The notes beneath the pieces were generated by a model. The model searched no databases and was not told the origin of the DNA. It saw only the letters and a program-made list of their open reading frames with translations. Positions 30,566-56,618 of a DNA stretch of 64,000 bases are shown one piece after another. The translations under genes and the position numbers were made by a program. Each line of letters opens with the position of its first letter. Position 1 is the first letter of the stretch. This DNA comes from Escherichia coli (GTDB taxonomy: Bacteria > Pseudomonadota > Gammaproteobacteria > Enterobacterales > Enterobacteriaceae). The stretch lies in NCBI RefSeq assembly GCF_030384885.1, contig NZ_CP128613.1, one strand, 5' to 3'.

Positions 30566-31459
<894 letters not shown>

Positions 31460-31808: not shown

Positions 31809-32783
31809 ATGTATCTTAATACTCAAGTTCAATATAATAAGTTAAATAAAGATGAAAAAAAGATCCTGTTGTTACAAAAGCTAGCCCATTTAACTGATTT
31901 TACTTTTGACAGAATAGAGACATTTTCAGCATTTGGACAATCTACTGAAACAGGTGTTTTTAAATATAAAGATGGCAATGAATTTGTTGTTGTCCCCGGG
32001 GATACAGTAATATTAGGGTGGGATGCCAGTCTCAATAATATGGATGGTCCGACAAAACAAGAATTTGAAGAGATGTTGGAACCAGAAGGTTTAGATTTGA
32101 ATAATTATCTCACCGACTCTTGCACACCTGTCAGGAAGGTTACAATTTCCCCGATGCTGGTTGAAAGAAACGTTCACGCCGAACCAAGTTGGAAGGAAGT
32201 ATCTCTTACGGACCCCCGCATCACAGAGAACAGCATGCTGCAAAAATTTCTGTCTGATTATATGGAAAAAATTAATCCTGGAGTTCACGAATTAAACGCA
32301 AGATTGAGATTACAATATATAGATGGGGATTTATTTGCACAAATATATGAATCAATTAGCTATGATGAGTTACTTCAAAATATCCAAAGCAATAGTTTTG
32401 ATCTTCCGAGCGAAGATGAATGGGAATATTTATGTGGCGGTGGTTCCAGGACACTCTGGCGCTGGGGGAATAATTTCGACTATCAAATGAAAATCCCATT
32501 TATTACTTCAGAAGAACCAACAACCTGGGATATAGAATGGCCTAATCAGTTTGGGTTGCAGATTGCATTTGATCCCTATCTTCAGGAAATTATTAATGAT
32601 AAAGATATTCTTCTGAAAGGTGGCGATGGTGGGTGCAATCTCTGCGGAGGTGCTAATGTTGTATTAGGATTCTTGCCTGTGGCAACTTATTACAAAGGAT
32701 ATAATAAACATACGGACGAATTAGAATATATGGATGACATTGGAGACAATTATACTTCTTATCGCAGAATAATTCGTTTATGA
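31809..32783 (+). CDS. Hypothetical protein, AT-rich gene; weak FGE-sulfatase (SUMF1)-like motif
   Basis: 324 aa ORF with AGAGGA RBS; motif LPSEDEWEYLCGGGSRTLWRWGNNFD resembles the FGE-domain EWEY...GG core; no other FGE signatures recognised. Confidence 0.6.
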   Translation: MYLNTQVQYNKLNKDEKKILLLQKLAHLTDFTFDRIETFSAFGQSTETGVFKYKDGNEFVVVPGDTVILGWDASLNNMDGPTKQEFEEMLEPEGLDLNNYLTDSCTPVRKVTISPMLVERNVHAEPSWKEVSLTDPRITENSMLQKFLSDYMEKINPGVHELNARLRLQYIDGDLFAQIYESISYDELLQNIQSNSFDLPSEDEWEYLCGGGSRTLWRWGNNFDYQMKIPFITSEEPTTWDIEWPNQFGLQIAFDPYLQEIINDKDILLKGGDGGCNLCGGANVVLGFLPVATYYKGYNKHTDELEYMDDIGDNYTSYRRIIRL

Positions 32784-32864: not shown

Positions 32865-34346
32865 ATGAACACTGGGAATTTCGAGTCGATACAAATCATG
32901 ATCGCCGCGCAAGAGTGGCGTAGCCTGCCGCTGCATCTGCGTTTGTATCAGGCTTTTCGTCAGTTGGTGATTTCTGGCGCGTTGTCTGATGGCGCAAAAC
33001 TGCCGTCCGCTCGCGCACTGGCCCAGCAACTGCACCTTTCCAGAGATACCATCGAAAATGCCTATTCCCAGCTCCACCGCGACGGTTTTATGGCTCGCAG
33101 GCAGGGGGCCGGGAGTTTCGCCAGCCGCCAGGGGATACCGCATATTCAGGGCCAGCATGCGCAACCACCCTCGCCCGGACAAGTACCGGCTTTAAGCGCT
33201 CGCTGGCAGCCAATTGCCGATCGCGCAGTCTCTTTCGATGCCCGCCAGATGCAGACCTTTACGCTTGGCCTGCCGGAAACGCGAAACTTCCCGCTAAACA
33301 TTTGGCAGAACTTTTCCCGCCAGATCCAACGTGAGCAGGCGCATACGCTGATGTTAAATAGCGATCCGCAGGGCGAGCCACAGCTGCGCCAGCAAATTGC
33401 GCATTACCTTAATTTTGAACGCGGCGCGAAGGTAGATGCCGGGCAGATTGTGATTGTCAGCGGCGCACGGCAGGCGTTCTGGCTGTGCGGGCAACTGCTG
33501 GCAGAGGCCGGACAGTCGGTGGCGATGGAAAATCCGGGCTATCCCGGCGCGCGTCAGGCGTTTTCTGCCGCACAGCTTAATCTTCTTCCCGTTGAAGTGG
33601 ATGACGCCGGGATCCGGGTGGATAAACTGCCGCCCGCGCCGCTGGTTTACGTCACGCCCTCGCACCAGTTTCCTTCCGGTCATTTGCTCACGCTGGCGCG
33701 GCGTCATGCCCTGATTGCCTGGGCGCAGGCGCACAATGCATGGATTATCGAAGACGACTACGACAGCGAATTTCACTACACCAGCGCGCCCGTCGCCTGT
33801 CTGCAAGGGTTAGACTGCGAGCAACGCACCCTGTATGTCGGCACTTTCAGCAAAACGCTCTATCCCGGCCTGCGCATCGGTTATCTGGTGGTGCCGACGT
33901 CGCTGGCTGCGCACTTTGCCGCCGCGCGTAATTTGCTTGATGGCGCAACGCCTGCGTTATCCCAACTAACGCTGGCGCGATTTATCGAGTCCGGTCATTT
34001 TGCCGCCCATATTCGCAACATGCGCAGTATGTACGCAGTGCGACAGGCGAGCCTGGCAGAGGCTATTCATCAACACTTAAGTGAATGGGTCACGCCAGTG
34101 GTGACATCCGGTGGGTTACAAATGCCCTGCTGGCTGCATGAAGGTATTGATGAGCAACAGACGCTAAATGCCGCGCGCCGCGCCGGGTTAAACATCGCCG
34201 GAATGCGCCAGTTCTGGCTGACGCACCCCGCGCCCGCGGGCTGGCTGCTGGGATTTGCCGCCTTTACCCCCTACGAGATTGAACAGGGCGTCAAGCGTCT
34301 GCGGGCTGCATTATGCACTGAAAACGTGCGCCCAGCCGGGTCATAA
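32865..34346 (+). CDS. MocR/GntR-family regulator with fused PLP aminotransferase-like domain
   Basis: N-terminal GntR HTH (…LPSARALAQQLHLSRDTIENAYSQLHRDGFMARRQGAGSFAS…) and large C-terminal fold-type-I-like domain; start ambiguous (TTG 32835, ATG 32865 or 32898). Confidence 0.8.
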   Translation: MNTGNFESIQIMIAAQEWRSLPLHLRLYQAFRQLVISGALSDGAKLPSARALAQQLHLSRDTIENAYSQLHRDGFMARRQGAGSFASRQGIPHIQGQHAQPPSPGQVPALSARWQPIADRAVSFDARQMQTFTLGLPETRNFPLNIWQNFSRQIQREQAHTLMLNSDPQGEPQLRQQIAHYLNFERGAKVDAGQIVIVSGARQAFWLCGQLLAEAGQSVAMENPGYPGARQAFSAAQLNLLPVEVDDAGIRVDKLPPAPLVYVTPSHQFPSGHLLTLARRHALIAWAQAHNAWIIEDDYDSEFHYTSAPVACLQGLDCEQRTLYVGTFSKTLYPGLRIGYLVVPTSLAAHFAAARNLLDGATPALSQLTLARFIESGHFAAHIRNMRSMYAVRQASLAEAIHQHLSEWVTPVVTSGGLQMPCWLHEGIDEQQTLNAARRAGLNIAGMRQFWLTHPAPAGWLLGFAAFTPYEIEQGVKRLRAALCTENVRPAGS

Positions 34347-35397
34347 TCTCATACGGGATGGTGTTGCAGGCAGCGGCAACCTGTTCCAGCGTCTGGCCTG
34401 CGCCAATAAATTCCACCTTATCGCCCGCTGTCGGCGTGACGGCGCTGGCATCGACCATAAAGCTGTCCATACAAACCCGCCCCAATACCGGTAACCGCAC
34501 GCCGCGCCAGCATACGCCCGCCGGAGGACGCATATTTCGCGGAACGCCATCCGCGTAACCCGCGGATATCGTAGCGATACGCAGCGGACGCGTGGCGGTA
34601 ATCGTACTGCCATAGCCAACTGGCGTTCCCGCCGGGACATCCTGCACGCGCAGAATAGTTAGCGTCAGCGTAAAAGCCGGTTTTAGCGGCCTGGAAAACC
34701 ACGGCTGGGCGACGCCAAACAGCGCAATCCCCGGACGGCAGAGATCTTCCCGCCAACCTGGTTGCAAAAACATTCCGCAGGAGTTCGCCAGCGAAAATCG
34801 GCTGCTGGGGAAAACCGTTTTTGCCTGCTGGAATAGCGCGTGTTGCGCCACATTTAACGCATGATCCGGCCTGTCGGCGTTCGCCAGATGGCTGATGATA
34901 TAGTCCGGCGCAGGCCAGTTACGCTCACGAAATATCGCCGCCAGACGCATCAGTTGTTGCGGCATCACGCCCAGCCGCGACATACCGGAATCGAGCTGGA
35001 TCATCACCGCACGCCGCTGCTGGCGCGTTTCCAGTAACGTAAGCCACGCCATCACCTGGTCAATGGAATTGAGCAATGGCGTGATCTGCTGCGCGTAACA
35101 ATACGCCATCGCCTCCGGCATAACCCCATTAAGCACTACCACCATCGCATCAGTGGGCAGGATTTTACGCAGCGCCACGCCCTCCGAAAGCTGTGCCACA
35201 AAAAAGATCCGGCAGTTCGCCGCATACAGGGCGGGCGCAATCGCCTCCGCCCCCAGACCATAGGCATTGGCTTTCAACACCGCGCCACATTGCGCAGGGG
35301 CAACATGGCGCGCCAGCGTGCGATAATTATCGACGATGGCGGCGAGATTGACGCACATAACGCCGCACGCCGCCTGGATTTCAGTAGAAGTCATCAT
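34291..35397 (-). CDS. Alanine racemase-family PLP enzyme (fold type III)
   Basis: PLP-lysine motif AVLKANAYGLGA and C-terminal GRVCMDSFMVD motif; start ATG overlaps the stop of the upstream SHMT-like gene (ATGA). Confidence 0.85.
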   Translation of the reverse strand: MMTSTEIQAACGVMCVNLAAIVDNYRTLARHVAPAQCGAVLKANAYGLGAEAIAPALYAANCRIFFVAQLSEGVALRKILPTDAMVVVLNGVMPEAMAYCYAQQITPLLNSIDQVMAWLTLLETRQQRRAVMIQLDSGMSRLGVMPQQLMRLAAIFRERNWPAPDYIISHLANADRPDHALNVAQHALFQQAKTVFPSSRFSLANSCGMFLQPGWREDLCRPGIALFGVAQPWFSRPLKPAFTLTLTILRVQDVPAGTPVGYGSTITATRPLRIATISAGYADGVPRNMRPPAGVCWRGVRLPVLGRVCMDSFMVDASAVTPTAGDKVEFIGAGQTLEQVAAACNTIPYEIMTRLGARFQCIMQPADA

Positions 35398-36632
35398 TGA
35401 TAAGACAACGGGTAGCGGTTGGTTAGTTGTATTACTTTTTGCTCAATATCGGCGCAAATGCCTGCGATATCTGACGAGTTGATGGCGAAAATGATTTCAC
35501 TTATCCAGTCAGCAATAAGCACAAAATCATCCGCCTTCATCCCACGCGTGGTGCAGGCCGCGCTGCCAATACGGACCCCGGAGGTAATCGACGGCGGCTG
35601 CGGATCGCCCGGCAGGGTGTTTTTATTGACCGTGATCCCCGCCAGTTCGAGAAAGTACTCCACCTGTGCGCCGGTTAACCCCTGCGGGCGCAGGTCGATA
35701 ATCCCCAGATGGCAGTCGGTGCCGCCCGTTAACAGCGTCAGACCGCGCTGCGCCAGTTGCTGGCACATCGCCTGCGCATTGTCGATAACCTACCCGGCGT
35801 AACGTTTAAATTCTGGTTGTAATGCCTCGCCAAGCGCCACCGCTTTCGCCGCGATAACGTGCATCAACGGCCCGCCCTGCAAACCGGGAAAGATGGCGCT
35901 GTCGATTTTTTTCGCAAGCCTGGCGTCATTGGTGAGGATCATGCCGCCGCGCGGCCCGCGCAACGTTTTATGCGTGGTGGTGGTGACCACATCAGCATAC
36001 GCCAGCGGCGAAGGAAAACAGCCGCCCGCCACCAGCCCGGCAAAGTGCGCCATATCCACCAGCAAAATGGCATCAACGGCATCGGCAATGCGGCGAAAAC
36101 GGGCAAAATCATAGTGGCGTGGATAAGCCGATCCTCCGGCAATAATTAACCGTGGGCGCTCGCGTAGCGCGATCATCTCGACCTCATCCATATCAATCAG
36201 GCCACTATGGGCATCGACGCCATAGTGAAAGGCGTTAAACCATTTGCCGGATTGATTGACCGGAGAACCGTGCGTGAGATGCCCGCCGCATTGCAGGCTC
36301 ATGCCAAGAATTTTGTCGCCGGGCTTCAGCAACGCCAGATAGACCGCCTGATTCGCCTGGCTGCCGGAGTGAGGCTGCACATTGACGTAACGCGCGCCAA
36401 AGAGCTGCTGCGCGCGGGTTATCGCCAGCATCTCAACCTCATCAATAAACTTACAGCCGCCGTAATAGCGATGCTGGTAATAACCTTCGGCGTATTTATT
36501 GGTTAACACCGACCCCTGCGCCGCGAGAACGGCGGGGCTTACGAAATTCTCCGAGGCAATCAGTTCCAGCGACTGCTGCTGGCGCTGTTGCTCCTGGTTA
36601 ATCAATGCAAAAAGTGGATCGTTATTTATCAT
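35394..36632 (-). pseudogene. Serine hydroxymethyltransferase (GlyA)-like gene interrupted by an in-frame TAG at 35790-35792
   Basis: N-terminal ORF (…[31 protein letters not shown]…[14 protein letters not shown]…PEFKRYAG*) and C-terminal ORF (VIDNAQAM…TSGVRIGSAA…) are in the same frame, separated only by TAG where GlyA has Gln. Confidence 0.75.
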
Positions 36633-36864
36633 GCGCTTCCCCCGCAAATTCATCATGCGATGATTTTCGCAGGGAAAACCTCGTCCGCACCCTGCCACTT
36701 TTTAGACTGAGCGCAGACCACCTATGTCGTTTTACTTAAAAGAAGAGGGAAGAAGGCTCCAGGCATCTCCATATGCGATTCTGGTTGGTAATACATCATA
36801 TTCCAGCTGCTCTTATCCGCCTACGTTATTGCATATACGGATAAGGCAGCCTCAATACGTACTT

Positions 36865-38430
36865 TTACTTGATATCTTTCACGCGCATACCGTTGATCTG
36901 TTCATCCGTGATGGTATTACCCGCTTTAAAGTAATCAACCACCGCGTGATAAACGTAATAACCGCCCGTCGTATTGCGCGCTTTACCCTCGGTAAACGCG
37001 GTAAAACCATCTCCACCATCAGCAAGGAAACTCTGAGTGGCAATGTGGTAAACCGTCGCATCTTCAATCGGTTCGCCATTCAGAGTCAGCGAGATAACCC
37101 GCTGACCAACCGGCTTGCTGCTGTCGTACTTCATTTCCAGGCCTTTCGATACCTGTAAAACGCCATTACTTAAACTTGCGCCGTGTTCCATCAAACTGCG
37201 TAATTGTTTACCCGTGAGTTCCATCGTCACCAGTTCGTTGGGGAACGGGAAGGTACTGATGACGCCACCCATCGTAATTGCACCCGCCGGGATCTCATTG
37301 CGGATACCGCCAGAGTTGGTTAACGCCAACTGGGTATTTTTACCCGCCGCTGCCAGCAAAGCGTCCGCCGCCAGATTCCCGAGAGAAGCCGATTCACCAT
37401 AGGCACGTTTCAATTCAACTGGCGATTGCGCCACCGTTTGCTGCACGACTTCATCCAGCTTTTTATTCCAACTATCAATCACCTGTTTTGTTTGCGGATC
37501 GGGCTTCCACTCGTCGGCGTAAAGGGTTTTAAGCTCGAAGTTTTTCACCGTAAAAGTGTGCGGCTTCTCTTTGTAGTCTAGAACCAGTTTACCCACATCA
37601 ATCCCGCCGCTGTCAGTGGAGAGGATTAACGTATTGCCGACTTTAATCGGTTCCGGCGTACCCACATGTGCATGCCCGGTGATCAAAATATCCAGCCCTT
37701 TCACCTGACTTGCCGTCTGAATATCTTTATCCAGTGCGCGGCGCACATCTGTGCCCCCCATACTGGACTGGCGGGCCGGAACACCTTCGTGAATCAGCGC
37801 AACGGTCAAATCAACCTTGCCTTTGAGTTCATCGATATAACGTTGTAGCCATTTAATTTCATCACGCGCCTCAATACCCACTCGCGTTGCCGCAGATACC
37901 GTATCATTAAAGGCAAATACACCGTGCAAACCAATCACGCCAATTTTCACGCCGTCTTTTTCAATGATGGTATAGGGCTTATCCCAGAATGATTTACTGC
38001 TGTTCTGATAAAAAACATTACCCTGCACAATCGGGAATTTTGCCTGACTCAACTGTAATAACGTATTGTCCCAGCCGTGATCAAATTCATGATTACCTAT
38101 AGTGGCCGCATCGAACGGCATGGTATTCATAATATCGATAATCGCCTTGCCTTTAGTCAGGCTGCTAATATACGGCCCGGTAAAATAGTCACCCGCATCA
38201 AAAAACCAGGTCGCTTTGTTTTTAGCTTTTTCTTGTTTAACAAGCGTAGTGATATTTGCCCAGCCGCCAATATCTCGTTTACCGTCAGCAATCCACGGCA
38301 CTTTATAAGGCTCTACATGTGCATGGAGGTCGTTGGTATAAATGATGGTGACATCTTTGGCGCAAGCCCAAAACGGCAGTGTTAATGCGATACCCGCAGC
38401 AAGCATTTTAATTTTCATAAACAATCCCAT
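36865..38430 (-). CDS. UshA/CpdB-family periplasmic nucleotidase (paralog A)
   Basis: Signal peptide [20 protein letters not shown]; metallophosphatase motifs [26 protein letters not shown]; C-terminal 5'-nucleotidase-type domain (…[13 protein letters not shown]…). Confidence 0.85.
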
Positions 38431-38550
38431 CCAGTGAGATAAAGGATTGCTACATTACGTTCTGAAAGGCTTTTTTATGTGAGAATACTCACATCCAGAG
38501 GCGATAACTGTAGGACAAAATCAACGACCTTATGAAATCGTTGGTGATAT

Positions 38551-39678
38551 ATGTCAAATCTGTTTGCGATTAATGTCTGTAAAACGTTCGGTTGTCGAAA
38601 TTTGGGATTGGCCTCATCGGAAGATTACAGTTGGCCAGACTATAAACTGGGTTTTCCGGCACTGCACTGCCAGGCATGCGGAAGTTACCCCCCTTTGTTT
38701 GATGAACAACAATTTCGTGACTGGTTGTCAGTTCACATGACTGCGTGTGCCATAGAAACAGGGCATTTTTGTCCATCATGCTATTGTAAAGAAAAGATTT
38801 TTTATGGCCACAACCCGCAGGGAACACAACGCGTTCAATGCCGTTCATGCAAAAAAGTCTGGACTCCGAAACAGCAGCCAGCAAGAGAAATTACGTATCC
38901 CCAGTCCATTGAAACCGTTCAACTGTTCATGCCCTTTCAAGGAGCCAGCGCAGTACAAAAGCTCTATGTTTTAGTCAGTCTTGACGCCACTCGTGGCAAC
39001 ATCCTTCATCTCTCCACGAATTATACGCAACATCAGACAGGAGACAGTCTGCGGTACAGTTACAGAGGCAATACAGAACCAACTGAGCACCATAGCGATA
39101 TTGCGCAGAGGGTAGATATGCGTGAAGCACAATTCTTGCGCCGGAGCCAGTTCGATGAAATTCAGTATGGCAGTGCTGTGCTCAAGCGCAACGGCAAGGG
39201 AGCCATACTACGCCCGGTTATCACGGCACACGGGCATTTCAGAATACTGAAAATCCGCTTTCCACATGTCAAAACGCATATCATTTCACACGAATGTTTT
39301 CTGAGAGGCGCAATTATTACAGCCTGGGCAGATCAGTTCCGCCAACAACAAGGCGAACTTTGGTTCGTAGAGGAAGAAATCAGCGACCGTAATGCTGATA
39401 TTCCCTGGCATTTTCAGGGAACGACATACCATGGTTGGTGGCAAAATCAGTGGCAACGCTGGGGGCAGGGGAATAACAGCAAGATGGTCTGCCTGCTCAC
39501 AGGAGTCTCCTTAGAAAGGGGCGCAAATGTTTCTCTGGCAACCAGTCGTTGCTTTATCACATGGCTGACAGACCAACACGACTTTACCCAAAGCGCGTTA
39601 TTATCCGCAGGTCGCGTAACGAAAATGCTGACCTCACTGGCGTTAAAATACAATGAATCGCTCACTCCATCTTGTTAG
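38551..39678 (+). CDS. Hypothetical cysteine-rich protein with N-terminal zinc-ribbon motifs (transposase-like zinc ribbon?)
   Basis: 375 aa; C-x4-C, C-x2-C, C-x2-C…C-x2-C spacing including FYGHNPQGTQRVQCRSCKKVW, resembling IS1 InsA / IS1595-type ribbons; remainder unassigned. Confidence 0.6.
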   Translation: MSNLFAINVCKTFGCRNLGLASSEDYSWPDYKLGFPALHCQACGSYPPLFDEQQFRDWLSVHMTACAIETGHFCPSCYCKEKIFYGHNPQGTQRVQCRSCKKVWTPKQQPAREITYPQSIETVQLFMPFQGASAVQKLYVLVSLDATRGNILHLSTNYTQHQTGDSLRYSYRGNTEPTEHHSDIAQRVDMREAQFLRRSQFDEIQYGSAVLKRNGKGAILRPVITAHGHFRILKIRFPHVKTHIISHECFLRGAIITAWADQFRQQQGELWFVEEEISDRNADIPWHFQGTTYHGWWQNQWQRWGQGNNSKMVCLLTGVSLERGANVSLATSRCFITWLTDQHDFTQSALLSAGRVTKMLTSLALKYNESLTPSC

Positions 39679-39907
39679 TCAATACACTCGACAAACGACC
39701 ATAAATTAATGGGATCACTATTTCTCATTTAATTAAATATATGAATGTATGACTGAAAAATATAATCACAGTCAATGTTTAATTAATAACATTATTTGTT
39801 ACTAAGATCACATAATACTTTCCTGACCTATGTTTACATAAAAATAAGACACGGTGTTCCTTTTATTTAAATAATTCAACCAATGTAACAACCCCTATCA
39901 AGGAGGG

Positions 39908-41461
39908 ATGATGAGAACTGTATTTACGACTTTATCAGTCATATTCAGCGTGATGTTTTCTCACAGTATACTAGCTCAGGACGTTACTATTTATTATACG
40001 AATGATATTCACGCACATGTCAATCCGGCAAAAATTCCCGCTGTTGATAAGAACAGACTTGTAGGTGGTATGGCTAATATTGCAGGCATCGTTAATGAAG
40101 CGAAGAAAAAAAACAAAGATGTCTTTTTCTTTGATGCAGGCGACTATTTTACCGGTCCGTATATCAGTACCCTGACCAAAGGTGAAGCTATTATTGATAT
40201 CATGAACACCATGCCCTTTGATGCGGTGTCCGTTGGTAATCACGAGTTCGATCACGGCGTGCCCAATATGGTATCTCAGTTATCAAAAGCAAAATTCCCC
40301 ATTCTGCTGGGAAATATTTACTACACCGATACAAATAAACCAGTTTGGGATCATCCGTGGACCATTATCGAAAAAGATGGTTTAAAGATTGGTGTGATTG
40401 GATTGCATGGTGCATTCGCTTTCTATGATACAGTCGCGGCAAAAGCACGTGAAGGCGTAGAAGCCAGAGACGAAATTAAATATTTAAATAAAGCACTTGC
40501 AGAATTAAAAGGTAAAGTCGACATTACCGTTTTGCTAATTCACGAAGGTGTTCCGGCGCGTCAATCAAGCTTTGGTAGTAAAGATGTGGAGCGGCTACTA
40601 CAGGCAGATATTGAGACAGCTAAAAAAGTGAATGGTGTTGATGTCTTAATTACCGGTCACGCACATGTCGGAACACCGCAACCAATAAAAGTTAATAACA
40701 CATTAATTGTATCTACCGATGCATACGGCACCGACATCGGAAAACTTGTGCTTGATTACAATCCGAAAACAAAGAAAATTGATAGTTATAATGGTGAGTT
40801 AATCACCATCTTTGCAGATCAATTTAAACCTGACACCATCGTTCAAAATACTATCGATAAATGGAGCATAAAGCTTAACAAAATAACACAGGAAGTTGTC
40901 GGCCATTCTCCCGTAGTTTTAACACGTGAGTATGGCAGTTCTTCTTCTACCGGTAACCTTATTCTAGATGCAATGATGGAAAAAACACCTGATGCCATTG
41001 CCGGATTTCAAAATAGCGGTGGGATGCGAGCTGATTTTCCTAAAGGTGATATCACACTGGGAGATGTTATTAGCACATTCCCCTTTAATAATGACCTCAT
41101 CGAGATGGATTTGACGGGCCGCGATCTCAAATCATTGATGACGCATGCAACCAATCTAACTAACGGTGTGTTACAGGTTTCAAAAAGCGTTGCGGTTGTC
41201 TATGACAGCAAAAAACCACTCAACCAACGGTTAATCTCTTTCACCATTAACGGCAAACCCGTGGAAGATAATCAAACATATCGTATTGCCACGCACTCCT
41301 TTTGTGCCAGTGGTGGTGACGGTTTTGAAGCATTTTTGAATGGAAAAAATGTGAAGACGATACCGGGAACAACCTCGGCGGAATCTATCATCGATTATTT
41401 CAAAAATCATAAACCTGTCACCCCAGACTTAACTAAACGAGTCATGGACGTCGCCAAATAA
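39908..41461 (+). CDS. UshA/CpdB-family periplasmic nucleotidase (paralog B, most divergent)
   Basis: Signal peptide, same metallophosphatase motif set ([26 protein letters not shown]); AGGAGG RBS at 39901. Confidence 0.85.
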   Translation: MMRTVFTTLSVIFSVMFSHSILAQDVTIYYTNDIHAHVNPAKIPAVDKNRLVGGMANIAGIVNEAKKKNKDVFFFDAGDYFTGPYISTLTKGEAIIDIMNTMPFDAVSVGNHEFDHGVPNMVSQLSKAKFPILLGNIYYTDTNKPVWDHPWTIIEKDGLKIGVIGLHGAFAFYDTVAAKAREGVEARDEIKYLNKALAELKGKVDITVLLIHEGVPARQSSFGSKDVERLLQADIETAKKVNGVDVLITGHAHVGTPQPIKVNNTLIVSTDAYGTDIGKLVLDYNPKTKKIDSYNGELITIFADQFKPDTIVQNTIDKWSIKLNKITQEVVGHSPVVLTREYGSSSSTGNLILDAMMEKTPDAIAGFQNSGGMRADFPKGDITLGDVISTFPFNNDLIEMDLTGRDLKSLMTHATNLTNGVLQVSKSVAVVYDSKKPLNQRLISFTINGKPVEDNQTYRIATHSFCASGGDGFEAFLNGKNVKTIPGTTSAESIIDYFKNHKPVTPDLTKRVMDVAK

Positions 41462-41495
41462 AATATCATTTATCAGTCTATTTATTTAACAAGGA

Positions 41496-43121
41496 ATGCG
41501 AATGAAAACAGTGCAGCGTACTTTACTTGCCGCAACATTGCTGACTATTTTTTCGGTCTCGGTCATGGCGCAGGATGTCACGATTATTTATACAAATGAT
41601 CTTCACGCTCATGTGGATTCTTATAAAGTGCCGTATATCGCAGACGGAAAACGCGACATTGGCGGCTTTGCCAATATATCTACTTTAGTAAAACAAGAGA
41701 AAGCGAAAAATAAAGCCACCTTTTATTTTGATGCTGGAGACTATTTCACCGGCCCTTATATCAGCAGTCTGACAAAGGGCGAAGCAATAATTGACATTAT
41801 GAATACCATGCCTTTTGACGCAGTATCAATCGGTAATCATGAGTTTGACCATGGCTGGGATAATGCCCTGCGACAATTAAGCAAAGCGAATTTTCCTGTT
41901 TTATTGGGCAATGTTTATCATAAAGAGAGTGAAAAACCCTTCTGGAACAAGCCCTACACCATCCTGGAAAAAGATGGCATCAAGATTGGTATTATTGGGC
42001 TACACGGCGTATTTGCATTTAATGATACGGTCTCGGAGCTCTCTCTCCAGGGACTCGATAATGACAATAATAACCGCTTTGATAAATCTTCCGAGACCCT
42101 TAAGAATCAGGGGATTGAAGCACGTGATGAAGTGAAGTATTTGCAGCATTATATCGACGAGTTACGTGATAAGGTTGACCTCACTGTGGCGCTGGTTCAT
42201 GAAGGCGTTCCGGCGCGTCAGTCCAGCATTGGCAATACAGATGTTAGACGCGCTCTTGATAAAGATATTCAAACCGCTAGCAAGGTGAAAGGATTGGATA
42301 TTCTGATTACCGGGCATGCCCACGTCGGAACGCCAGAACCAATCAAAGTCGGCAACACCTTAATCCTTTCGACTGATAGTGGCGGTATCGATATTGGTAA
42401 ATTAGTCCTTGATGTCAACCCTACAGCTCGTACCCATAAAATGAAGAGCTTTGAGCTGAAAACAGTTTATGCCGATGAATGGATACCCGATCCAACGACA
42501 CAAAAAGTTATCAATGGCTGGAATAAAAAACTGGCGGATATTGTACGCCAACCAGTGGGTGAATCATCGATTGCATTAACTCGCGCCTATGGTGAGTCAT
42601 CGCAACTAGGCAACCTGTTTACCGATGCAATGCTTGTCGCTGCTCCGACTGCACAGATTGCATTGATAAACTCCGGCAGCTTACGTGCGGATATAAATGC
42701 AGGCACGATTACCTTTGGCGACATTACCAGTACATTCCCCTTCAAGAATGAACTTACTGAAATGGATCTCAGCGGTAAGGATCTGCGTAACCTACTGGAA
42801 CACGGGGCATCGCTTACCAATGGCATCCTGCAAATGTCAAAAGGCGCAGAAATGCGCTATACCCCGCAGAAACCAGTAGGTCAGCGCATAGTATCTTTTA
42901 AAATTAATGGTGAAGAGATCGTTGATACGAATATTTACCATGTTGCAACAACGACTTTCCTTGCACTGGGGGGCGATGGTTTTCTGGCATTCAAAGAAGG
43001 GAAAAATGTTCAGGTCCGCGCCGGAAAAAACATGTCCGATGTCGTGATCGATTATTTGAAGAAAGGCCACAAGATTACGCCTGCACAGGTAAATGAAATG
43101 CGGGTGGACGTTAGCAAATAA
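41496..43121 (+). CDS. UshA/CpdB-family periplasmic nucleotidase (paralog C, with ~27 aa Asn/Asp-rich insert)
   Basis: Signal peptide; same motif set; insert ELSLQGLDNDNNNRFDKSSETLKNQG absent from paralogs A and B; real start probably ATG 41502. Confidence 0.85.
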   Translation: MRMKTVQRTLLAATLLTIFSVSVMAQDVTIIYTNDLHAHVDSYKVPYIADGKRDIGGFANISTLVKQEKAKNKATFYFDAGDYFTGPYISSLTKGEAIIDIMNTMPFDAVSIGNHEFDHGWDNALRQLSKANFPVLLGNVYHKESEKPFWNKPYTILEKDGIKIGIIGLHGVFAFNDTVSELSLQGLDNDNNNRFDKSSETLKNQGIEARDEVKYLQHYIDELRDKVDLTVALVHEGVPARQSSIGNTDVRRALDKDIQTASKVKGLDILITGHAHVGTPEPIKVGNTLILSTDSGGIDIGKLVLDVNPTARTHKMKSFELKTVYADEWIPDPTTQKVINGWNKKLADIVRQPVGESSIALTRAYGESSQLGNLFTDAMLVAAPTAQIALINSGSLRADINAGTITFGDITSTFPFKNELTEMDLSGKDLRNLLEHGASLTNGILQMSKGAEMRYTPQKPVGQRIVSFKINGEEIVDTNIYHVATTTFLALGGDGFLAFKEGKNVQVRAGKNMSDVVIDYLKKGHKITPAQVNEMRVDVSK

Positions 43122-43133
43122 TAAAAAAATTAT

Positions 43134-43165
43134 AATGCCATTCATTCACTGAATGGCATTATTTT
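43134..43165 (+). terminator. Terminator-like hairpin after nucleotidase paralog C
   Basis: atgccattca-ttcac-tgaatggcat followed by T-rich tract. Confidence 0.5.
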
Positions 43166-43198
43166 CTCTAAATCAACAATAGATAATGAGATATATTT

Positions 43199-44059
43199 AT
43201 GTGTATAAAAAAGCACGGGATAGCTTTATCGATTCTATTAATACCTTGCATTGGAAACGCTCAGAAAATTAAAAGTGAGGAAGGCTGGTTACATCAAAGC
43301 TTGAATGTCATTGGTCGCACAGACTCTCGCTTTGGCCCAAGGCTGACTAACGACCTCTACCCTGAATATACTGTAGCAGGAAGAAAAGACTGGTTTGATT
43401 TTTATGGTTATGTTGATCTACCAAAATTCTTTGGCGTCGGCAGTCACTATGATGTTGGGATCTGGGATGAGGGCTCACCACTATTTACGGAAATAGAACC
43501 TCGGTTTTCCATTGACAAATTGACCGGATTAAATCTTGCGTTCGGCCCTTTTAAAGAATGGTTCATTGCAAACAACTATGTCTATGATATGGGTGACAAC
43601 CAGTCATCCCGGCAAAGTACATGGTATATGGGGCTTGGTACAGATATCGACACGGGTCTACCAATTAAGCTTTCTGCCAATATATACGCCAAGTATCAGT
43701 GGCAAAACTATGGTGCCGCTAATGAAAATGAATGGGACGGATATCGATTCAAAATAAAATATAGCATTCCTCTTACCCATTTATTCGGAGGGCGATTGGT
43801 ATACAATAGTTTTACTAACTTTGATTTTGGATCCGATCTTGCGGACAAATCACACAATAATAAACGAACCAGTAATGCTATTGCTTCAAGCCATATCCTT
43901 TCCCTGCTATATGAACACTGGAAATTTGCATTTACACTACGTTATTTTCACAACGGTGGACAATGGAATGCTGGGGAGAAAGTTAACTTCGGAGATGGTC
44001 CATTTGAATTAAAAAACACAGGATGGGGAACCTATACTACTATTGGTTATCAATTTTAA
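43199..44059 (+). CDS. Tsx-family nucleoside-specific outer-membrane channel paralog
   Basis: Signal peptide, C-terminal Phe; long colinear blocks matching Tsx as recalled (…KDWFDFYGY…[12 protein letters not shown]…[14 protein letters not shown]…[26 protein letters not shown]…). Confidence 0.85.
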
Positions 44060-44275: not shown

Positions 44276-46708
44276 CTACAACAACTGCGCCAGACGGTTA
44301 ATATCCGACTGAATCGCCCCGGCGGTGACGTCGCGCCCTGCGCCTGGCCCACGGATCACCAGCGGGTTGTCGCGATACCAGCGGCTTTCGATGGCAAAGA
44401 CGTTATCGCACGGTAGTAGTGATGCCAGCGGATGGTCTTCTCGCACCGCTTCCACGCCTACTCGCGCTTTGCCGTTAGCATCGAAACGCGCCACGTAGCG
44501 CAACACCAGCCCCATTTCACGGGCCGCTTCCAACCGTTGTACCATCTGCTCATTAAGTTCATCGCCATTTTCAAAGAAATGGTCGATGCTGCCACCTTCG
44601 CAATGGGTTGGCACCAGTGATTCAACACGCACCTGGTCCGGTTCAATGTTGTAACCCGCTTCACGCGCCAGAATCACCAGCTTGCGCATCACATCTTTGC
44701 CGGAGAGGTCATCACGCGGGTCAGGTTCAGTTAAGCCCTGCTGCCACGCCTGATCCACCAGCTCAGTAAACGGCACGCTACCGTCGAATTGCAGGAACAG
44801 CCAGGAGAGCGTGCCGGAGAAGATCCCGCTGATCGACAAAATAGTGTCGCCGCTGTCGATCAGATCGCGCACGGTATGGTTGATCGGCAAACCTGCGCCG
44901 ACGGTGGCGTTGTATAGCCAGTGACGCCCGGTTTTTTCGAACGCGTCGTGGATCTGTCGATATTTATTGCTGTCGCTGGCTCCCGCCAGTTTGTTGGCAC
45001 TGATGACGTGGAAACCGTGGCTGGCGAAATCGAGATACTGATCAGCAAGCTGCTGGCTGGCAGTAACGTCCAGCACCACTAAATCATCATACGGATGGGC
45101 ACGCATCCACAGGAACAGCGACTCTTCATCCTGTTCGACGGCTTCATCATTAAAGAAGGCTAGCGCACGGCTGGCGTCCAGCCCGTCATAGCTCAACAGG
45201 CTGCGACGGCTGTCCACCACGCCTGCCAGCACAAATTCAAAGCCGGTGCGCGCCGAGAGCGTGCTCTGCTCACGGGCGAACAGTTCCAGCCAGCGGGAAC
45301 CGATATTGCCCTTACCGAACAATACCAGGCCGATGCGTTTTTCTGCGCGGAAGACGGACTGATGCAGCCCCTGAATCAGGCTTTCGGTAGGTCCGGTACG
45401 CAGTACTGCCACCAGGCTGATGCCGTCATCGGACTGCCAGGTAAATTCGACCGGCTGGCCTTTCAGTTGCTGCCAGAAGCGGTGGCAATGCAGCGGGTTA
45501 CGGGTGACGCCTGCACCAACCATCGCCACCAGCGCCAGCCCCTGACGCAGGCGCAGTTCGCCAGGTAATCCTGCTTCGTCGAGGATTTTCAGCGCACTAT
45601 CGGCCACTTCCGAGGTGTAGCAAAATTGCAGCAACTGGCGATCGTTATGCACGCCAACCGCCAGTGGGCGCACCTGAGCACGTTTCAGGATTTGGTCGAT
45701 CTCTTTATGCGCCAGTTTGAAATCCTGACTGGCGGGCACCTGAAACTCAATCAAACAGACATCATCGTGGCTGGTGACAATACGCGCGCCAGTACCGGAA
45801 GCCAGCACGCGTTCAATGCGCGTGGAACCTTGATCCGGCGTGTAGCTACAGCGCAGCTGCAGGTCGATTTCACTGCCAGAAACTGGCTGTAAAGTACGGG
45901 CGTGAAGAACGGGGGCCGCCAGACGCGCCAGTTCACTGGCTTCATCAAGACGCAGCAATGGCAGCAGGCAGGCATCTTTCACTTTACGCGGGTCAGCGCT
46001 GTATACCCCGGCGACGTCGCTCCAGATGGTTACGCGGGAAACTCCCGCCAGCGCACCGATTTGTGTCGCGGAATAGTCGGAACCGTTACGCCCCAGCAGC
46101 ACCGTTTCACCGGCGTTGTTACGGCTGATAAACCCGGTCACCACCAGACGTTTGCCCGGATGTTGTACCAGTAGCTGTTGCAGCAACGGGTAAGAAAGCC
46201 CTTCATCAACCTGCGGCTGCGCGGCGCGTTCAGCGCGTAAAAACTCGCGGGCATCAAGCCAGGCCGCAGGCAATCCTTGTTGATTAAGTACCGCAGACAT
46301 CAGGCGCGCCGACCACACTTCACCGTGGCCCACCACTTCCGCATACACCGCATCGTTAATACCGCTGTCGAGCAGCGCCGCCAGGCGTTCCAGATCGCTG
46401 ACAAAAGCGCTAATGAGGCTATCGGCTTCTTCGGCGGGTAGCAGGCCGCTAATCAGATCGCACTGATAGCGACGCAGCGTTTGTTGAACCTGATGCGCAG
46501 AGAGACGATCGGTCTGGCTTAGTTTCAACCAGTTAATCAACTGGTTAGTGGTGCTACCGGCGGCGGAAACCACCATCATATCGTCAGGCTGAGAGTACTC
46601 CGCCATAATGCCCGCGACACGCAAATAACACTTCACATCAGCCAGACTACTGCCACCAAATTTATGCAGTTGACGACCTTTCGCCCCTGCCTGCGCAATC
46701 ACACTCAT
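44276..46708 (-). CDS. metL: Bifunctional aspartokinase II / homoserine dehydrogenase II
   Basis: 810 aa, MSVIAQAGAKGRQLHKFGGSSLADVKCYLRVAGIMAEY... Confidence 0.95.
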   Translation of the reverse strand: MSVIAQAGAKGRQLHKFGGSSLADVKCYLRVAGIMAEYSQPDDMMVVSAAGSTTNQLINWLKLSQTDRLSAHQVQQTLRRYQCDLISGLLPAEEADSLISAFVSDLERLAALLDSGINDAVYAEVVGHGEVWSARLMSAVLNQQGLPAAWLDAREFLRAERAAQPQVDEGLSYPLLQQLLVQHPGKRLVVTGFISRNNAGETVLLGRNGSDYSATQIGALAGVSRVTIWSDVAGVYSADPRKVKDACLLPLLRLDEASELARLAAPVLHARTLQPVSGSEIDLQLRCSYTPDQGSTRIERVLASGTGARIVTSHDDVCLIEFQVPASQDFKLAHKEIDQILKRAQVRPLAVGVHNDRQLLQFCYTSEVADSALKILDEAGLPGELRLRQGLALVAMVGAGVTRNPLHCHRFWQQLKGQPVEFTWQSDDGISLVAVLRTGPTESLIQGLHQSVFRAEKRIGLVLFGKGNIGSRWLELFAREQSTLSARTGFEFVLAGVVDSRRSLLSYDGLDASRALAFFNDEAVEQDEESLFLWMRAHPYDDLVVLDVTASQQLADQYLDFASHGFHVISANKLAGASDSNKYRQIHDAFEKTGRHWLYNATVGAGLPINHTVRDLIDSGDTILSISGIFSGTLSWLFLQFDGSVPFTELVDQAWQQGLTEPDPRDDLSGKDVMRKLVILAREAGYNIEPDQVRVESLVPTHCEGGSIDHFFENGDELNEQMVQRLEAAREMGLVLRYVARFDANGKARVGVEAVREDHPLASLLPCDNVFAIESRWYRDNPLVIRGPGAGRDVTAGAIQSDINRLAQLL

Positions 46709-49225: not shown

Positions 49226-50362
49226 TTACGAAAGCCCGCTCCCAGCAAGGACTGACGCCAGATACTTTCTGTCCATGGCTGCTTTTCGCATCTTACGTCT
49301 TAACCCTGCCTTGAATACCTTATCATTCGTTAAAATATTAATAGCGATGTGCCGTATCCCTGAAAATAATTCTGCGGCGTTTCCTCTTCGTATTTTGCAG
49401 TCGTCTTCATTCATTACCACGTCCAGACGCCAGTGCAGCTTATTCTCCACGTGCCAGTGGTTTCGGATTGCTGTGGCGAACTTTTCTGCGGTTAAATCAG
49501 CAGAACTGATATAATATCTGACCGTCATTTCTGGCTCTTTCTTTTGTTCTGCTATTATTGACCGAAAGGAGAATGCCACGCATAATTTCTTCAGTCCTTT
49601 CCATTCAAACGTGAAATCAATAAGTTCATCACGGACATCGCAAACAATATGAAGACGGATTTCTTCTCTGCCGTGACTCTTTTCACTCATTGCGTAACTG
49701 TCATGCTCTGGATTATTTAATTCTTTCAGCGGAAATTTTTCCTCGAAGGCTTTATTTAGCCGCCCCTGGTTTCCTTTTACAGCGAATACATAATCACCGC
49801 CCTGTTTTTGTATCTTCTCTGCAATATCTTTCTGGCAACCCATCGCATCAGTTGTGATGATTTTTCCTTTAATATCCAGCATGTTAAGAAGTTCAGGGAT
49901 AGCTGTAATTTCATTGGATTTCTCATCCGTCCTGATCTGTCCGATGACCAGACTGTGCATTGTTGAGAATGCACTAATGACATGAATCGCTCCCCTGCGG
50001 CGACTCTTGTCATAAGAATGCCGGAGTGTTTTTCCATCAATTGCGATGACGTCTTTATCATCTGAAGTATGGCAATCTCGCATCCAGTTAATAAAGCACT
50101 CGTGAAATTTTGAAGGACTGATACAGGATACAACTCTGGCGATGGTATCGTGAACAGGAATACCATTTTCAAAATCACCATATTGTTTTAAAAAATCGCG
50201 ATGTGCTTCCCCAAAATCCTCTATATGTTCCCAGCCTTCTGCACCAGAAATAACGGCGCAAATAGTCAACAGTAGAATATCCGATAATTTATGTTCCACT
50301 TTCCAGGTTTGTCTGTAATCGGGGATAATAGAAATATGTTCCATCAATTTTTTAAGTTCCAT
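49226..50362 (-). mobile_element. H-repeat-associated (ISAs1-family) transposase gene, intact ORF
   Basis: 378 aa, [59 protein letters not shown]... matches Rhs-associated H-rpt proteins as recalled; element ends not mapped. Confidence 0.8.
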
Positions 50363-50469
50363 TCTTTTCTCCTTAATTATGTAAGGAGTATTTGATCATG
50401 TATAAGCAATAAAAAAACAGCTTCAGGCAATGAGGAATATCTCAATTTTTAAACATAAAATGCGAATTG

Positions 50470-50905
50470 TTTAGTACAAAAAAGCAGCGTTAAGTGAGTA
50501 GGCCACCGGAACCTCCCCGACAGCCTCTCGCAGAACCGTACGTGAAACTCTCGCTTCATACGGCTCCCGTCAGGCAAACGCGCTTCCTGGTCCTGCTTTC
50601 CAGTGGGCAAACAACTCCGGCTTCTCTTTTGACAGCCTTTCCATTAGCTGACACGCCTTCGTCTTTCTATACCGCAGGGTTTTATATTTCTTTCTCGCCC
50701 ACGCAATCAGCGTCAGATTAATATATCTGCATACTTTCTTCATCGCTGATTTGTGGTATCTCGCGTAATAATTCAGCCACCCCAATATTATCGGATTCAG
50801 CCACTTCGCAATATCTTCGAGACTCATCTCCACCCTGCGTCTGATCCACAGTTTCCTGAGTTTTCCAATCATGCCTTCGGGTTTACTCATCTCACTGTAT
50901 CTCAC
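50470..50905 (-). mobile_element. Group II intron 3' remnant: maturase C-terminal fragment plus domain V
   Basis: ORF fragment has maturase motif WLNPIILGWLNYYARY; just downstream, minus-strand 50566-50533 reads GAGCCGTATGAAGCGAGAGTTTCACGTACGGTTC, a 34-nt domain-V-type hairpin. Confidence 0.6.
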
Positions 50906-51111
50906 ATAGGATCAGATCTCGTCTGATCGTTCCCCCTGCGCTCACTACCATGGCTCTTTACCACAGCAGCCGGGGTTGTTTGGGACCGACTTCCGACAGC
51001 AGATCCCGGTGGGCCTGCCACCATCTCTTCACAAGCTTATGCTTATTACATGCAAAACGTCCCGTTTTGCATCTTTGTGCCTACGGCACACCGTGATCTT
51101 TCCCTGTCGGC

Positions 51112-51330
51112 ATGTTGACCACTGACGAATGGGGTAGTTACGCTAGAGAGTTACCAAAGGAGAAGCATCTGACTGGTAAGATTTTTACTCAGCATATTGA
51201 GCGTAACAATCTGACCCTGAGAACCCGAATCAAACGTCTGGCCCGCAGAACCATCTGTTTCTCGCGTTCTGTAGAACTTCATGAAAAAGTCATCGGTGCT
51301 TTTATCGAAAATATATGTTCTACTAATTGG
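51112..51330 (+). pseudogene. IS1-family InsB transposase C-terminal fragment
   Basis: …DEWGSYARELPKEKHLTGKIFTQHIERNNLTLRTRIKRLARRTICFSRSVELHEKVIG… parallels the InsB C-terminus (…[37 protein letters not shown]…); no N-terminal part present. Confidence 0.6.
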
Positions 51331-51395
51331 AGTCATCACCCTTCTGATGAGCTTTCCTTGGATGATTACCAGACTGAATACATAGCCAAAGATTT

Positions 51396-51755
51396 TTACC
51401 TCATTCTGCTTTTTTTTCTCAAATGACATATATTATATTTTACATCATATTCATAGGCATATGACATTCCCCCGCCCCCCATTATGTCATTGTGGGTTGA
51501 TGTTGGGCTTTCATAAAAAAATACATCTTTTTTTGAACTAGCATTAATTATATTTACTTTATATATTAAAATATTTTCTCCATCTGGAAATATTTTAGCC
51601 ACACAATATAAAGCAGCCAAATCCGAATTACTTAAAAATATATTGTCATCACTCATAACTCCAGCCATTAAATGACTGGAGACTAAAGCAAGGAAATAAC
51701 AACATTGTATTGCCTTCATTTTAATTACTCCCTTGCCTGATAATTGTAACTCCAT
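51396..51755 (-). CDS. Putative Rhs-toxin immunity protein (secreted/membrane-anchored); 3' end may be truncated by the IS1 fragment
   Basis: ORF directly downstream of and overlapping the Rhs C-terminal tip; internal start [21 protein letters not shown] looks like a signal peptide; AT-rich. Confidence 0.45.
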
Positions 51756-52275
51756 TCCCTTTAGCTTTGGGATTATATTTTAGATAGGTGTTATTTGGTG
51801 TTCCCAAGTAACTACTGTATTCTTTTTTTCCCATTCCATTCATATAAGAATTCGTTAAATCTTTGCTTGAAAAATTTAGACTATCATAAACATCATTTTC
51901 TTTTGTTACTTTATTTCCTTTATCGTCAGAGTAAAAACCGTGAGTGTGATAATCGCCTACTCTCTCTGAACCTTCAGGGCATTTTATATTTCGCAAGTCT
52001 ACACTATCATTATCATTTGAACTTATCGGATTCATGGGGAAATATTCACCTTGCTTCTTACATATTAGTCCACCATATTCTTTATTCTCGTTAATTGATT
52101 CTCCATTACACATTGCCAATGCAAATATTCCAATATCATCTATATTTTTTGATTTAAATTCATATAATCCTAATGGATCCATGCCATTCACCGGGCTCAG
52201 CGGATATGTATACAGGTTCCATCCCCCCTTCAGCCCAATCGGATCCTGAGTGATATACCGCCCCTGTAACCGTCC
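51721..52275 (-). pseudogene. Rhs core-end plus C-terminal toxin tip (RhsA-CT-like), detached from any intact rhs core
   Basis: Open frame reads [36 protein letters not shown]…; tip contains [16 protein letters not shown], resembling the K-12 RhsA C-terminal region as recalled. Confidence 0.6.
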
Positions 52276-52664
52276 TCACCGGGAAACAGGTGCTCAAAAT
52301 ACAGGCTTCTGCCGCCGTTATCACTGAGTATCAGAGTGTTATCGCGCAGCTGCAAGCGGATATCCGCAGGCATTTTCCAGCCGGGGCCGAGGCTCCCCAC
52401 CGGCGCGGGCGTTTTTGTCCGGTAACTGCTGTAGGTGCGGGAGAGGATGAACGGCAGCGGGCCGGGCAGGGCAAGGTCGGTTTCGCCGGGAAGGACCTTC
52501 GCACCGAGCAGCGGATTGACCGGATGGCCGGACGTCACCCCGCCGGGGCACACCGAACAGGCCACGCCGGTGGGGGCACCAATACGTACCCCGGCAGAAC
52601 CCTGGACAATGGGGCCACCATACTGCGTCATGTCGCCCTGACGCGCCGCCGGTTTTCCGCTCAT
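52230..52664 (-). pseudogene. Rhs N-terminal fragment (PAAR-like region), 144 codons then stop
   Basis: MSGKPAARQGDMTQYGGPIVQGSAGVRIGAPTGVACSVCPGG… matches Rhs N-termini; frame differs from the downstream core-end/CT frame. Confidence 0.7.
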
Positions 52665-52783
52665 CGTAAAATCCTTTTAAAATAAATAAGAACCAGAAGC
52701 CTAGCGCCAGTCAACAACAGGAAATGATAATGAGTTAACACCCCGGAATGTTTCAGAATTTATAAAAGGCAAATTACAGGCAC

Positions 52784-52811
52784 AAAAAAAGCGCCGTGCG
52801 GCGCTTTTTTC
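52784..52811 (-). terminator. rpmE rho-independent terminator
   Basis: aaaaaaagcgccg-tgc-ggcgcttttttc; on the minus strand the hairpin is followed by a T-run. Confidence 0.6.
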
Positions 52812-52823
52812 GGAAATCCGGTC

Positions 52824-53075
<252 letters not shown>

Positions 53076-53079
53076 CTAA

Positions 53080-55437
<2,358 letters not shown>

Positions 55438-55592
55438 TGCGCAAACGATGCGAGGCGGATCGAAAAATTCAATATTCATCACACTTTTCATGAAAATTCT
55501 GTAACCGTTTTCACGCGCTATCTGCTAAAAATGTTGCCGATGTGAAGTAAACATGGAAGTAGTACGCCTGCCGTGCCGGGCGAGGAGTGAGT

Positions 55593-56618
55593 GTGAAAGC
55601 GAAGAAGCAGGAAACTGCCGCGACCATGAAAGACGTTGCCCTGAAGGCAAAAGTCTCTACAGCGACCGTCTCCCGAGCATTAATGAATCCCGATAAAGTC
55701 TCCCAGGCCACCCGTAATCGGGTTGAAAAAGCGGCCCGGGAAGTAGGTTATTTGCCGCAGCCTATGGGGCGCAACGTCAAACGTAATGAATCCCGCACCA
55801 TTCTGGTGATTGTCCCGGATATCTGCGATCCCTTCTTTAGCGAAATTATTCGCGGTATCGAAGTTACGGCGGCAAATCACGGATATCTGGTGCTGATTGG
55901 CGACTGTGCGCATCAAAATCAGCAGGAAAAAACCTTTATCGATTTGATTATCACCAAGCAAATTGATGGCATGTTGCTGCTGGGTTCAAGGCTGCCGTTT
56001 GATGCCAGCATTGAGGAACAGCGTAATCTGCCGCCGATGGTGATGGCGAACGAATTTGCGCCGGAACTGGAGCTGCCTACAGTTCATATCGACAATCTGA
56101 CCGCCGCATTTGATGCAGTAAATTATTTATATGAGCAAGGTCATAAACGGATTGGCTGTATAGCCGGTCCCGAAGAGATGCCGCTGTGTCACTACCGCCT
56201 GCAAGGCTACGTTCAGGCGCTGCGTCGCTGCGGCATTATGGTTGATCCGCAATACATCGCCCGGGGCGACTTCTCCTTTGAAGCCGGAAGCAAAGCGATG
56301 CAACAGCTGCTTGCTCTTCCGCAACCGCCTACTGCTGTCTTCTGCCATAGCGATGTAATGGCGCTCGGCGCACTTTCTCAGGCAAAACGCCAGGGGCTGA
56401 AAGTCCCGGAAGACCTTTCCATAATCGGTTTTGATAACATCGACCTGACGCAATTTTGTGATCCGCCGCTGACAACCATCGCGCAGCCGCGTTACGAAAT
56501 CGGTCGGGAAGCTATGCTGTTATTGCTTGATCAAATGCAGGGGCAACACGTTGGCAGTGGCTCTCGTTTAATGGACTGCGAACTTATCATCCGGGGATCA
56601 ACGCGCGCGTTACCTTAA
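55593..56618 (+). CDS. cytR: LacI-family transcriptional repressor CytR
   Basis: GTG start after GAGGAG RBS; VKAKKQETAATMKDVALKAKVSTATVSRAL… HTH. Confidence 0.92.
   Translation: MKAKKQETAATMKDVALKAKVSTATVSRALMNPDKVSQATRNRVEKAAREVGYLPQPMGRNVKRNESRTILVIVPDICDPFFSEIIRGIEVTAANHGYLVLIGDCAHQNQQEKTFIDLIITKQIDGMLLLGSRLPFDASIEEQRNLPPMVMANEFAPELELPTVHIDNLTAAFDAVNYLYEQGHKRIGCIAGPEEMPLCHYRLQGYVQALRRCGIMVDPQYIARGDFSFEAGSKAMQQLLALPQPPTAVFCHSDVMALGALSQAKRQGLKVPEDLSIIGFDNIDLTQFCDPPLTTIAQPRYEIGREAMLLLLDQMQGQHVGSGSRLMDCELIIRGSTRALP

Follow-up and report, generated by a model that had tools for sequence, protein, structure and literature searches.

The 64,000-nucleotide stretch of Escherichia coli DNA analysed here (the window) includes a serine hydroxymethyltransferase-like gene, here SHMT2, that is divided by an in-frame amber codon. 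The question this raises is whether the stop is an error in the sequence, a codon that is still decoded as sense, or a mutation that has inactivated the gene. We conclude that SHMT2 is very probably a nonsense pseudogene in an accessory operon, created by one C to T change, fixed in its lineage by clonal inheritance, and tolerated. The window matches the chromosome of strain 2013C-4282 (NZ_CP027579.1) with 100% identity, and the pseudogene state is already known in that the public RefSeq annotation of this chromosome carries the flag, marking SHMT2 as 'serine hydroxymethyltransferase', a pseudogene with an 'internal stop'. One published study includes strain 2013C-4282 in its set of Escherichia cryptic clade I strains and reports it to be stx1-positive (PMC10100065).

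Translation of the minus strand from 36632 to 35394 gives a single frame of 280 codons, TAG, 131 codons and TGA (Table 1). The earlier note held that the two SHMT-like open reading frames are not frameshifted, and this stands, because the segment 35394..35792 is 399 nt, or 133 codons, and they share a frame. Around the stop the minus strand reads CCA GAA TTT AAA CGT TAC GCC GGG TAG GTT ATC GAC AAT GCG CAG GCG ATG, which agrees letter for letter with the PEFKRYAG-stop-VIDNAQAM quoted previously, and TAG at codon 281 is the only interruption of the 412-codon SHMT-family frame. The interruption is a real single codon in a strongly conserved frame, and not a chance pattern of open reading frames.

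Table 1. Features of the SHMT2 operon and the adjoining regulator gene, in coordinates of the window.
Feature	Coordinates	Strand	Remarks
SHMT2 (second, accessory serine hydroxymethyltransferase gene; pseudogene)	35394..36632	-	412 codons; NCBIfam NF000586; RefSeq flag
SHMT2 as drawn by RefSeq	35394-36653	-	Start ATG 7 codons farther upstream
Amber codon TAG, codon 281 of SHMT2 (plus-strand CTA)	35790..35792	-	Ancestral CAG (Gln)
SHMT2 N-terminal remnant, 280 aa, with TTTTHK PLP-lysine motif (K222)	35793..36632	-	Translated part; identical protein P0122
SHMT2 C-terminal remnant, 131 codons and TGA, with Arg354 (= E. coli SHMT Arg363)	35394..35789	-	3' of TAG
Internal ATG of SHMT2 C-terminal remnant	35766-35768	-	Opens 124-aa ORF; reported separately by gene callers
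A7 homopolymer in SHMT2 (GCG AAA AAA ATC)	35906..35912	-	Intact here; -1 frameshift site in some Salmonella copies
Alanine-racemase paralogue ('alanine racemase 3' in some records), 368 aa, intact here	34291..35397	-	TIGR00492, 234 bits (cutoff 168)
MocR/PdxR-like PLP-dependent transcription factor	32865..34346	+	NF052282, 429 bits (cutoff 320)

When codon 281 is repaired, the 412-aa protein is placed in the SHMT family (Pfam PF00464 / NCBIfam NF000586) by an NF000586 score of 611 bits (cutoff 335) over profile positions 4-403 of 404, and SHMTs account for all of its best PDB matches. Both of the diagnostic residues, the lysine in T-T-T-T-H-K and the R363 equivalent, are in the SHMT2 reading frame, although R354 is encoded 3' of the stop and is absent from the translated product; what SHMT2 lacks as a family member is an uninterrupted coding sequence. 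SHMT2 and E. coli GlyA are 54.5% identical over 407 aligned positions; the GlyA sequence used is identical to PDB 1DFO chain A and reads PEFKTYQQQV. The two have in common their family, length class, PLP-lysine motif and Arg363 equivalent, as well as the local motif PEFK-x-Y-x-x-Q-V, but SHMT2 differs in being an accessory second copy that shares its operon with racemase and MocR regulator genes, and in being interrupted by TAG. SHMT2 has higher identity to the SHMTs of alpha- and beta-proteobacteria (63-66%) than to the GlyA of enterobacteria. The stop had been described as falling at a Gln that is conserved in GlyA, and this is indeed so: the TAG column aligns with GlyA Q290 and is Gln in 86 of the 116 aligned family members.

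The four orthologous loci compared (E. coli GF4-3, E. coli RMDEC465, Salmonella enterica L013 and E. fergusonii L014) all have CAG at codon 281, and each of them is at the same metL–metF site; the E. fergusonii locus is in record CU928158.2, which we take to be strain ATCC 35469. This comparison of orthologous islands, suggested in the earlier note, bears out its proposal of a single CAG to TAG change, and the stop is not common to the orthologues. The E. fergusonii 'Serine hydroxymethyltransferase 2' (B7LUQ7/CAQ91260.1) and the Salmonella 412-aa SHMT (e.g. Typhi CT18) are part of the same module and, unlike SHMT2 here, are full length. Identity to the window protein after repair is 99% for P0001, which represents the cluster containing the E. 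fergusonii protein, and 93-94% for the Salmonella SHMT2 proteins. Pairwise dN/dS among five SHMT2 alleles is 0.07-0.12, and the stop is thus at a codon that is sense in the orthologues and in a conserved frame, as in a nonsense pseudogene. The step is the same as in the classical amber mutations of CAG codons (lacI/K-12 genetics), in which a Gln suppressor would restore the wild type; the present case differs in that 2013C-4282 has no suppressor tRNA-Gln (see below) and codon 281 is outside a Dcm site. The 5-methylcytosine in Dcm CCWGG sites is a classical mutation hotspot, and we considered it as the origin of the change, but the context of codon 281, GGGCAGGTT, contains no such site.

The complete genome is one assembly and single-base errors happen, which is the only ground for supposing, as one option in the earlier note did, that the true base is C (CAG) and SHMT2 is intact. 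The sequence TAC GCC GGG TAG GTT ATC GAC is, however, present in all seven independent assemblies read (L004-L010; Logan, ENA and NCBI), three of which have private SNPs elsewhere in the operon. The exact 280-aa product is found on 271 contigs (NCBI, ENA, Logan and JGI) and in 409 index blocks, and the 124-aa downstream ORF on 307 contigs, counts that pool several sources and may include one isolate repeatedly. The split annotation also recurs in TW10509, which we take to be the clade I reference strain, where the same truncation is annotated as a 302-aa product whose start is called at a GTG farther upstream (EGB69355.1), and the numbers directly following belong to the 124-aa ORF (EGB69356.1) and the racemase (EGB69357.1). 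Exact look-ups in a 15-billion-protein collection gave no match to the repaired protein or to any of three inferred ancestors of it (Q281, with or without G391D and S410P), and the allele is known solely in its TAG form. The seven assemblies, the 271 contigs and TW10509 together show that the stop is real and heritable, and an error common to all of these isolates is exceedingly improbable. Programmed recoding, with the in-frame stop as a conserved and functional element, has virtually no chance of being the explanation. It would be expected to leave a stop that is conserved in orthologues with constraint downstream, whereas the stop is lacking in every orthologue outside the lineage; a scan of the window with Rfam found no Rfam family or recoding signal near the stop, and we know of no decoding of UAG as a sense codon in E. 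coli.

An amber-suppressor tRNA, of the supE/glnV44 type or other, could restore full-length SHMT2 efficiently, and because TAG replaces a Gln codon the insertion of Gln would give the wild-type protein; moreover, TAG is the lesion in each of the three complete E. coli genomes that have the operon (see below). From these codons, however, CAG to TAG and TAT to TAG are the single-step changes that most commonly give a stop, and the four tRNA-Gln genes of the metT-leuW-glnU-glnW-metU-glnV-glnX operon, found by synteny and read with ARAGORN, have the wild-type anticodons TTG, TTG, CTG and CTG, with no CUA anticodon among them. There is no tRNA gene within the window. The search for a glnV44-type allele proposed in the earlier note therefore gives none in glnU-glnW-glnV-glnX; the tRNA check as a whole covered the window and the tRNA-Gln operon. 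Suppression would also require a suppressor that is fixed throughout a natural lineage, a rare situation, and we regard suppression as highly improbable. With CAG in the orthologues, TAG in seven assemblies and wild-type tRNA-Gln anticodons, the nonsense mutation is the one of the options offered previously that holds. A different possibility is that function is leaky or split, either through natural UAG readthrough at a low level, which in suppressor-free E. coli mainly inserts Gln and would give a trickle of wild-type enzyme, or through re-initiation at the internal ATG to give a complementing 124-aa fragment, with the racemase still coupled. The ATG is 21 nt past the stop, the frame stays open from there as far as the native stop with its ATGA overlap, and the private changes in the racemase of the window allele are 4 synonymous versus 0 non-synonymous, all of which would be consistent with such an arrangement. 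Re-initiation could occur at this ATG, eight codons past the stop, although it would do so without a usable Shine-Dalgarno sequence (GCGCAGGCG-ATG has an AGG merely 2 nt away), the pair of fragments would be missing residues 281-288, and the remaining private amino-acid changes are both in the downstream fragment. Sister lineages are broken elsewhere (at codon 20, and at racemase codon 349), unlike what would be expected of a designed split, and we consider this reading very unlikely. The decay is shallow, since the frame downstream of the stop is open and the racemase has no private non-synonymous changes, and some residual function may be left.

We therefore return to a nonsense pseudogene, and to its age. 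The dN/dS values show that SHMT2 has been under purifying selection for nearly its whole history, including the branch to the window allele, and that constraint persisted until recently. The window allele of SHMT2 has 7 synonymous and 3 non-synonymous changes of its own (Q281*, D391G and P410S), and the position of D391G and P410S, both 3' of the stop, is a small hint of relaxed constraint there. By this measure Q281* is young relative to the divergence of the alleles, yet it is fixed in the sampled lineage. The mutation had been called recent, and this is correct with respect to allele divergence, but not within the lineage, where it is fixed and shared with TW10509 and where no intact copy was found.

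The racemase ATG overlaps the SHMT2 TGA as ATGA at 35394-35397, as the earlier note pointed out, and the same 4-nt overlap is present in GF4-3, Salmonella L013 and L015/L016. The 30 nt 5' of the racemase ATG contain no purine-rich Shine-Dalgarno-like motif, and a promoter/terminator scan of 34000-37000, in which total counts were at the level of shuffled sequence, gave no minus-strand promoter-like site inside SHMT2 that could drive the racemase. Translation of the racemase is probably dependent on ribosomes completing SHMT2 at the overlap. Because the racemase has no Shine-Dalgarno-like motif of its own and ribosomes would halt 393 nt upstream of its ATG, its output is probably reduced, and the polar effect of the TAG that was predicted previously is plausible. 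The 280-aa product of SHMT2 itself keeps the PLP lysine and lacks everything after residue 280. R363 of E. coli SHMT binds the substrate carboxylate, and with the loss of this region, including the R363 equivalent, the product should be catalytically dead. In the B. stearothermophilus SHMT the C-terminal domain begins near residue 280, and codon 281 presumably lies close to the start of this domain by the same structure. According to PMC5396068, which cites Bhatt et al. 2004 on this point, the SHMT C-terminal domain stabilises quaternary structure; the numbering in PMC5396068 is based on alignment only.

A simple course of events would account for the locus. An accessory operon between metF and metL, consisting of SHMT2 and then the coupled alanine racemase, with a convergent MocR/PdxR-like regulator, occupies a site at which a few Escherichia lineages, E. 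fergusonii and Salmonella enterica likewise have it, with nearly all E. coli being without the operon. A single C to T transition in the clade I lineage of 2013C-4282 would then have changed Gln codon 281 from CAG to amber TAG, such that translation ends after 280 residues; the PLP-lysine region would be kept and the rest lost, and catalysis with it, and racemase output would fall through the halting of ribosomes ahead of the ATGA start. Housekeeping glyA supplies the essential function, and the loss of SHMT2 would therefore be tolerated and passed on clonally.

DNA of the SHMT2 operon is present in only 3 of 5426 complete E. coli genomes, and each of the three has its own amber lesion: Q281* (CAG to TAG) in SHMT2 of 2013C-4282, Q20* (CAG to TAG) in SHMT2 of GF4-3, and Y349* (TAT to TAG) in the racemase of RMDEC465. 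The three-gene SHMT-racemase-MocR/PdxR-like module is conserved in L013-L016; it is found in Salmonella, in E. fergusonii and, at 87% identity, in another organism in which it adjoins ParA/DnaB/DUF2857 genes. A parallel is the accumulation of pseudogenes in host-restricted Salmonella (Paratyphi A, Sendai and Typhi), where the same gene has been inactivated independently by frameshifts, truncation and deletion, lesions that differ from the one amber substitution seen here in an Escherichia clade I lineage. One example is a frameshift in SHMT2 of Salmonella Paratyphi A/Sendai that is present on at least 1000 contigs. Salmonella variants of 255 aa (P0123 and P0135) leave the frame after ...ARLAKK and continue in the -1 frame through a slip in the A7 tract, and a 322-aa Salmonella form ends directly before Gln323, presumably because of a stop at codon 323, judging from the end of the protein alone. 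There is one further frameshift in Salmonella SHMT2, and a 30-aa in-frame deletion. The SHMT2 operon is a dispensable accessory operon in routine decay, and SHMT2 adds to the cases in which an essential enzyme has a dispensable paralogue that decays recurrently.

The repeated knock-outs could alternatively be the outcome not of neutral decay but of selection, acting in gut Escherichia and Salmonella against an uncharacterised pathway of PLP enzymes, given three ambers in three E. coli genomes, at least four further lesions in Salmonella, and absence of the operon from nearly all E. coli. Counted over both genes in the three E. coli genomes, the private changes that alter an amino acid are 3 nonsense versus about 11 missense, which against a neutral nonsense:missense ratio of ~1:18 (a rough estimate and not a computed one) gives a binomial P of about 0.03, uncorrected for the non-random choice of genomes. 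The nonsense-to-missense ratio is only marginally high, and because of this and the non-random sample we consider selection for loss unlikely and favour routine decay.

The main value of the locus is in its correct annotation, and it has little importance beyond this, although the TAG allele can be used as a lineage marker for part of Escherichia cryptic clade I. A search of the literature gave no description of the intact SHMT2-racemase-MocR module of Salmonella and E. fergusonii, and the papers that it gave on methylserine hydroxymethyltransferase concern other organisms only. One possibility for the substrate of the module is that SHMT2 catalyses a reaction like that of 2-methylserine hydroxymethyltransferase, which would yield D-alanine for the racemase. 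The operon is within a ~12.8-kb stretch between metF and metL, in which we also note three metallophosphatase/5'-nucleotidase paralogues, a Tsx-like porin and two unnamed proteins. The MocR/PdxR-like gene is convergent with the racemase gene, with a 56-nt overlap of their 3' ends, and at one Salmonella locus the regulator gene is split.

Synonymous divergence in the accessory module differs markedly from that in the core genes on either side of it. Between the window and Salmonella, dS is 0.37 for the accessory serine hydroxymethyltransferase gene (SHMT2) and 0.52 for the alanine racemase gene (module genes at 34291–36632), compared with 1.16 for metF (30566–31456) and 0.96 for metL (44276–46708). 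Because the two module values fall so far below those of metF and metL, they suggest either that the module was exchanged between Salmonella and Escherichia at a later time, or that its synonymous sites are under unusual constraint. The metF and metL genes of this strain themselves have dS values of 0.09–0.10 with E. fergusonii and 0.23–0.24 with E. coli GF4-3, and this region may be recombinant or may reflect the clade I ancestry of the strain.

Other E. coli copies of the module carry lesions of their own. In GF4-3 the orthologous SHMT2 has a CAG to TAG amber change at codon 20 (L002, the GF4-3 locus, 6226), which is an independent mutation; codon 281 is CAG in this copy, and RefSeq labels it ‘internal stop’. 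In RMDEC465 SHMT2 is intact, and the racemase reading frame ends early at a TAG (TAT to TAG, Y349*; L003, the locus of this strain, about 8399), which corresponds to L001 8450 (window about 34351) and removes the last 19 residues; RefSeq reports a shortened, ‘intact’ alr (7392–8399) with no pseudogene call. In some Salmonella assemblies, a few Typhi among them, a -1 frameshift at the A7 run of SHMT2 (see table) yields 255-aa products; these frameshifts may be either real mutations by slippage or errors in sequencing the homopolymer.

The racemase gene and the MocR-like regulator gene, which are convergent, share 56 nt at the 3′ end of each (34291–34346). GF4-3, Salmonella (L013), E. fergusonii (L014) and the module copies of another organism (L015 and L016) all show this overlap as well. 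In the intergenic region upstream of SHMT2, RMDEC465 carries an inserted segment of 45 nt that both the window and GF4-3 lack, at window about 36748 (L001 6053).

The metF–metL island looks mosaic in base composition, since GC is 0.40–0.48 across 36865–44059 and 0.56–0.59 in the SHMT2–racemase–MocR module. The 36865–44059 segment contains three paralogous bifunctional metallophosphatase/5′-nucleotidase genes, a Tsx-like nucleoside channel gene and a gene for a 375-aa ‘cytoplasmic protein’, whose sole match is a weak one, IS1-transposase N-terminal (E = 4e-4). The hypothetical protein WP_000281214.1 has no match among NCBIfam profiles and is identical in 2013C-4282 and RMDEC465; E. fergusonii has a 324-aa gene at this position, which in GF4-3 is taken instead by malI and a PTS gene. 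A cluster of mobile elements adjoins yiiX.

Features of the window by position
Feature	Position	Strand	Remark
WP_000281214.1, hypothetical protein	31809–32783	+	324 aa; GC 0.37
A7 run in SHMT2	35906–35912	-	
Mobile-element cluster	49300–57200		adjoins yiiX
ISAs1 transposase	within 49300–57200		
Group II intron with ltrA	within 49300–57200		Rfam RF01999 and RF00029 at 50493–51022
IS1 fragment	within 49300–57200		
RHS element	within 49300–57200
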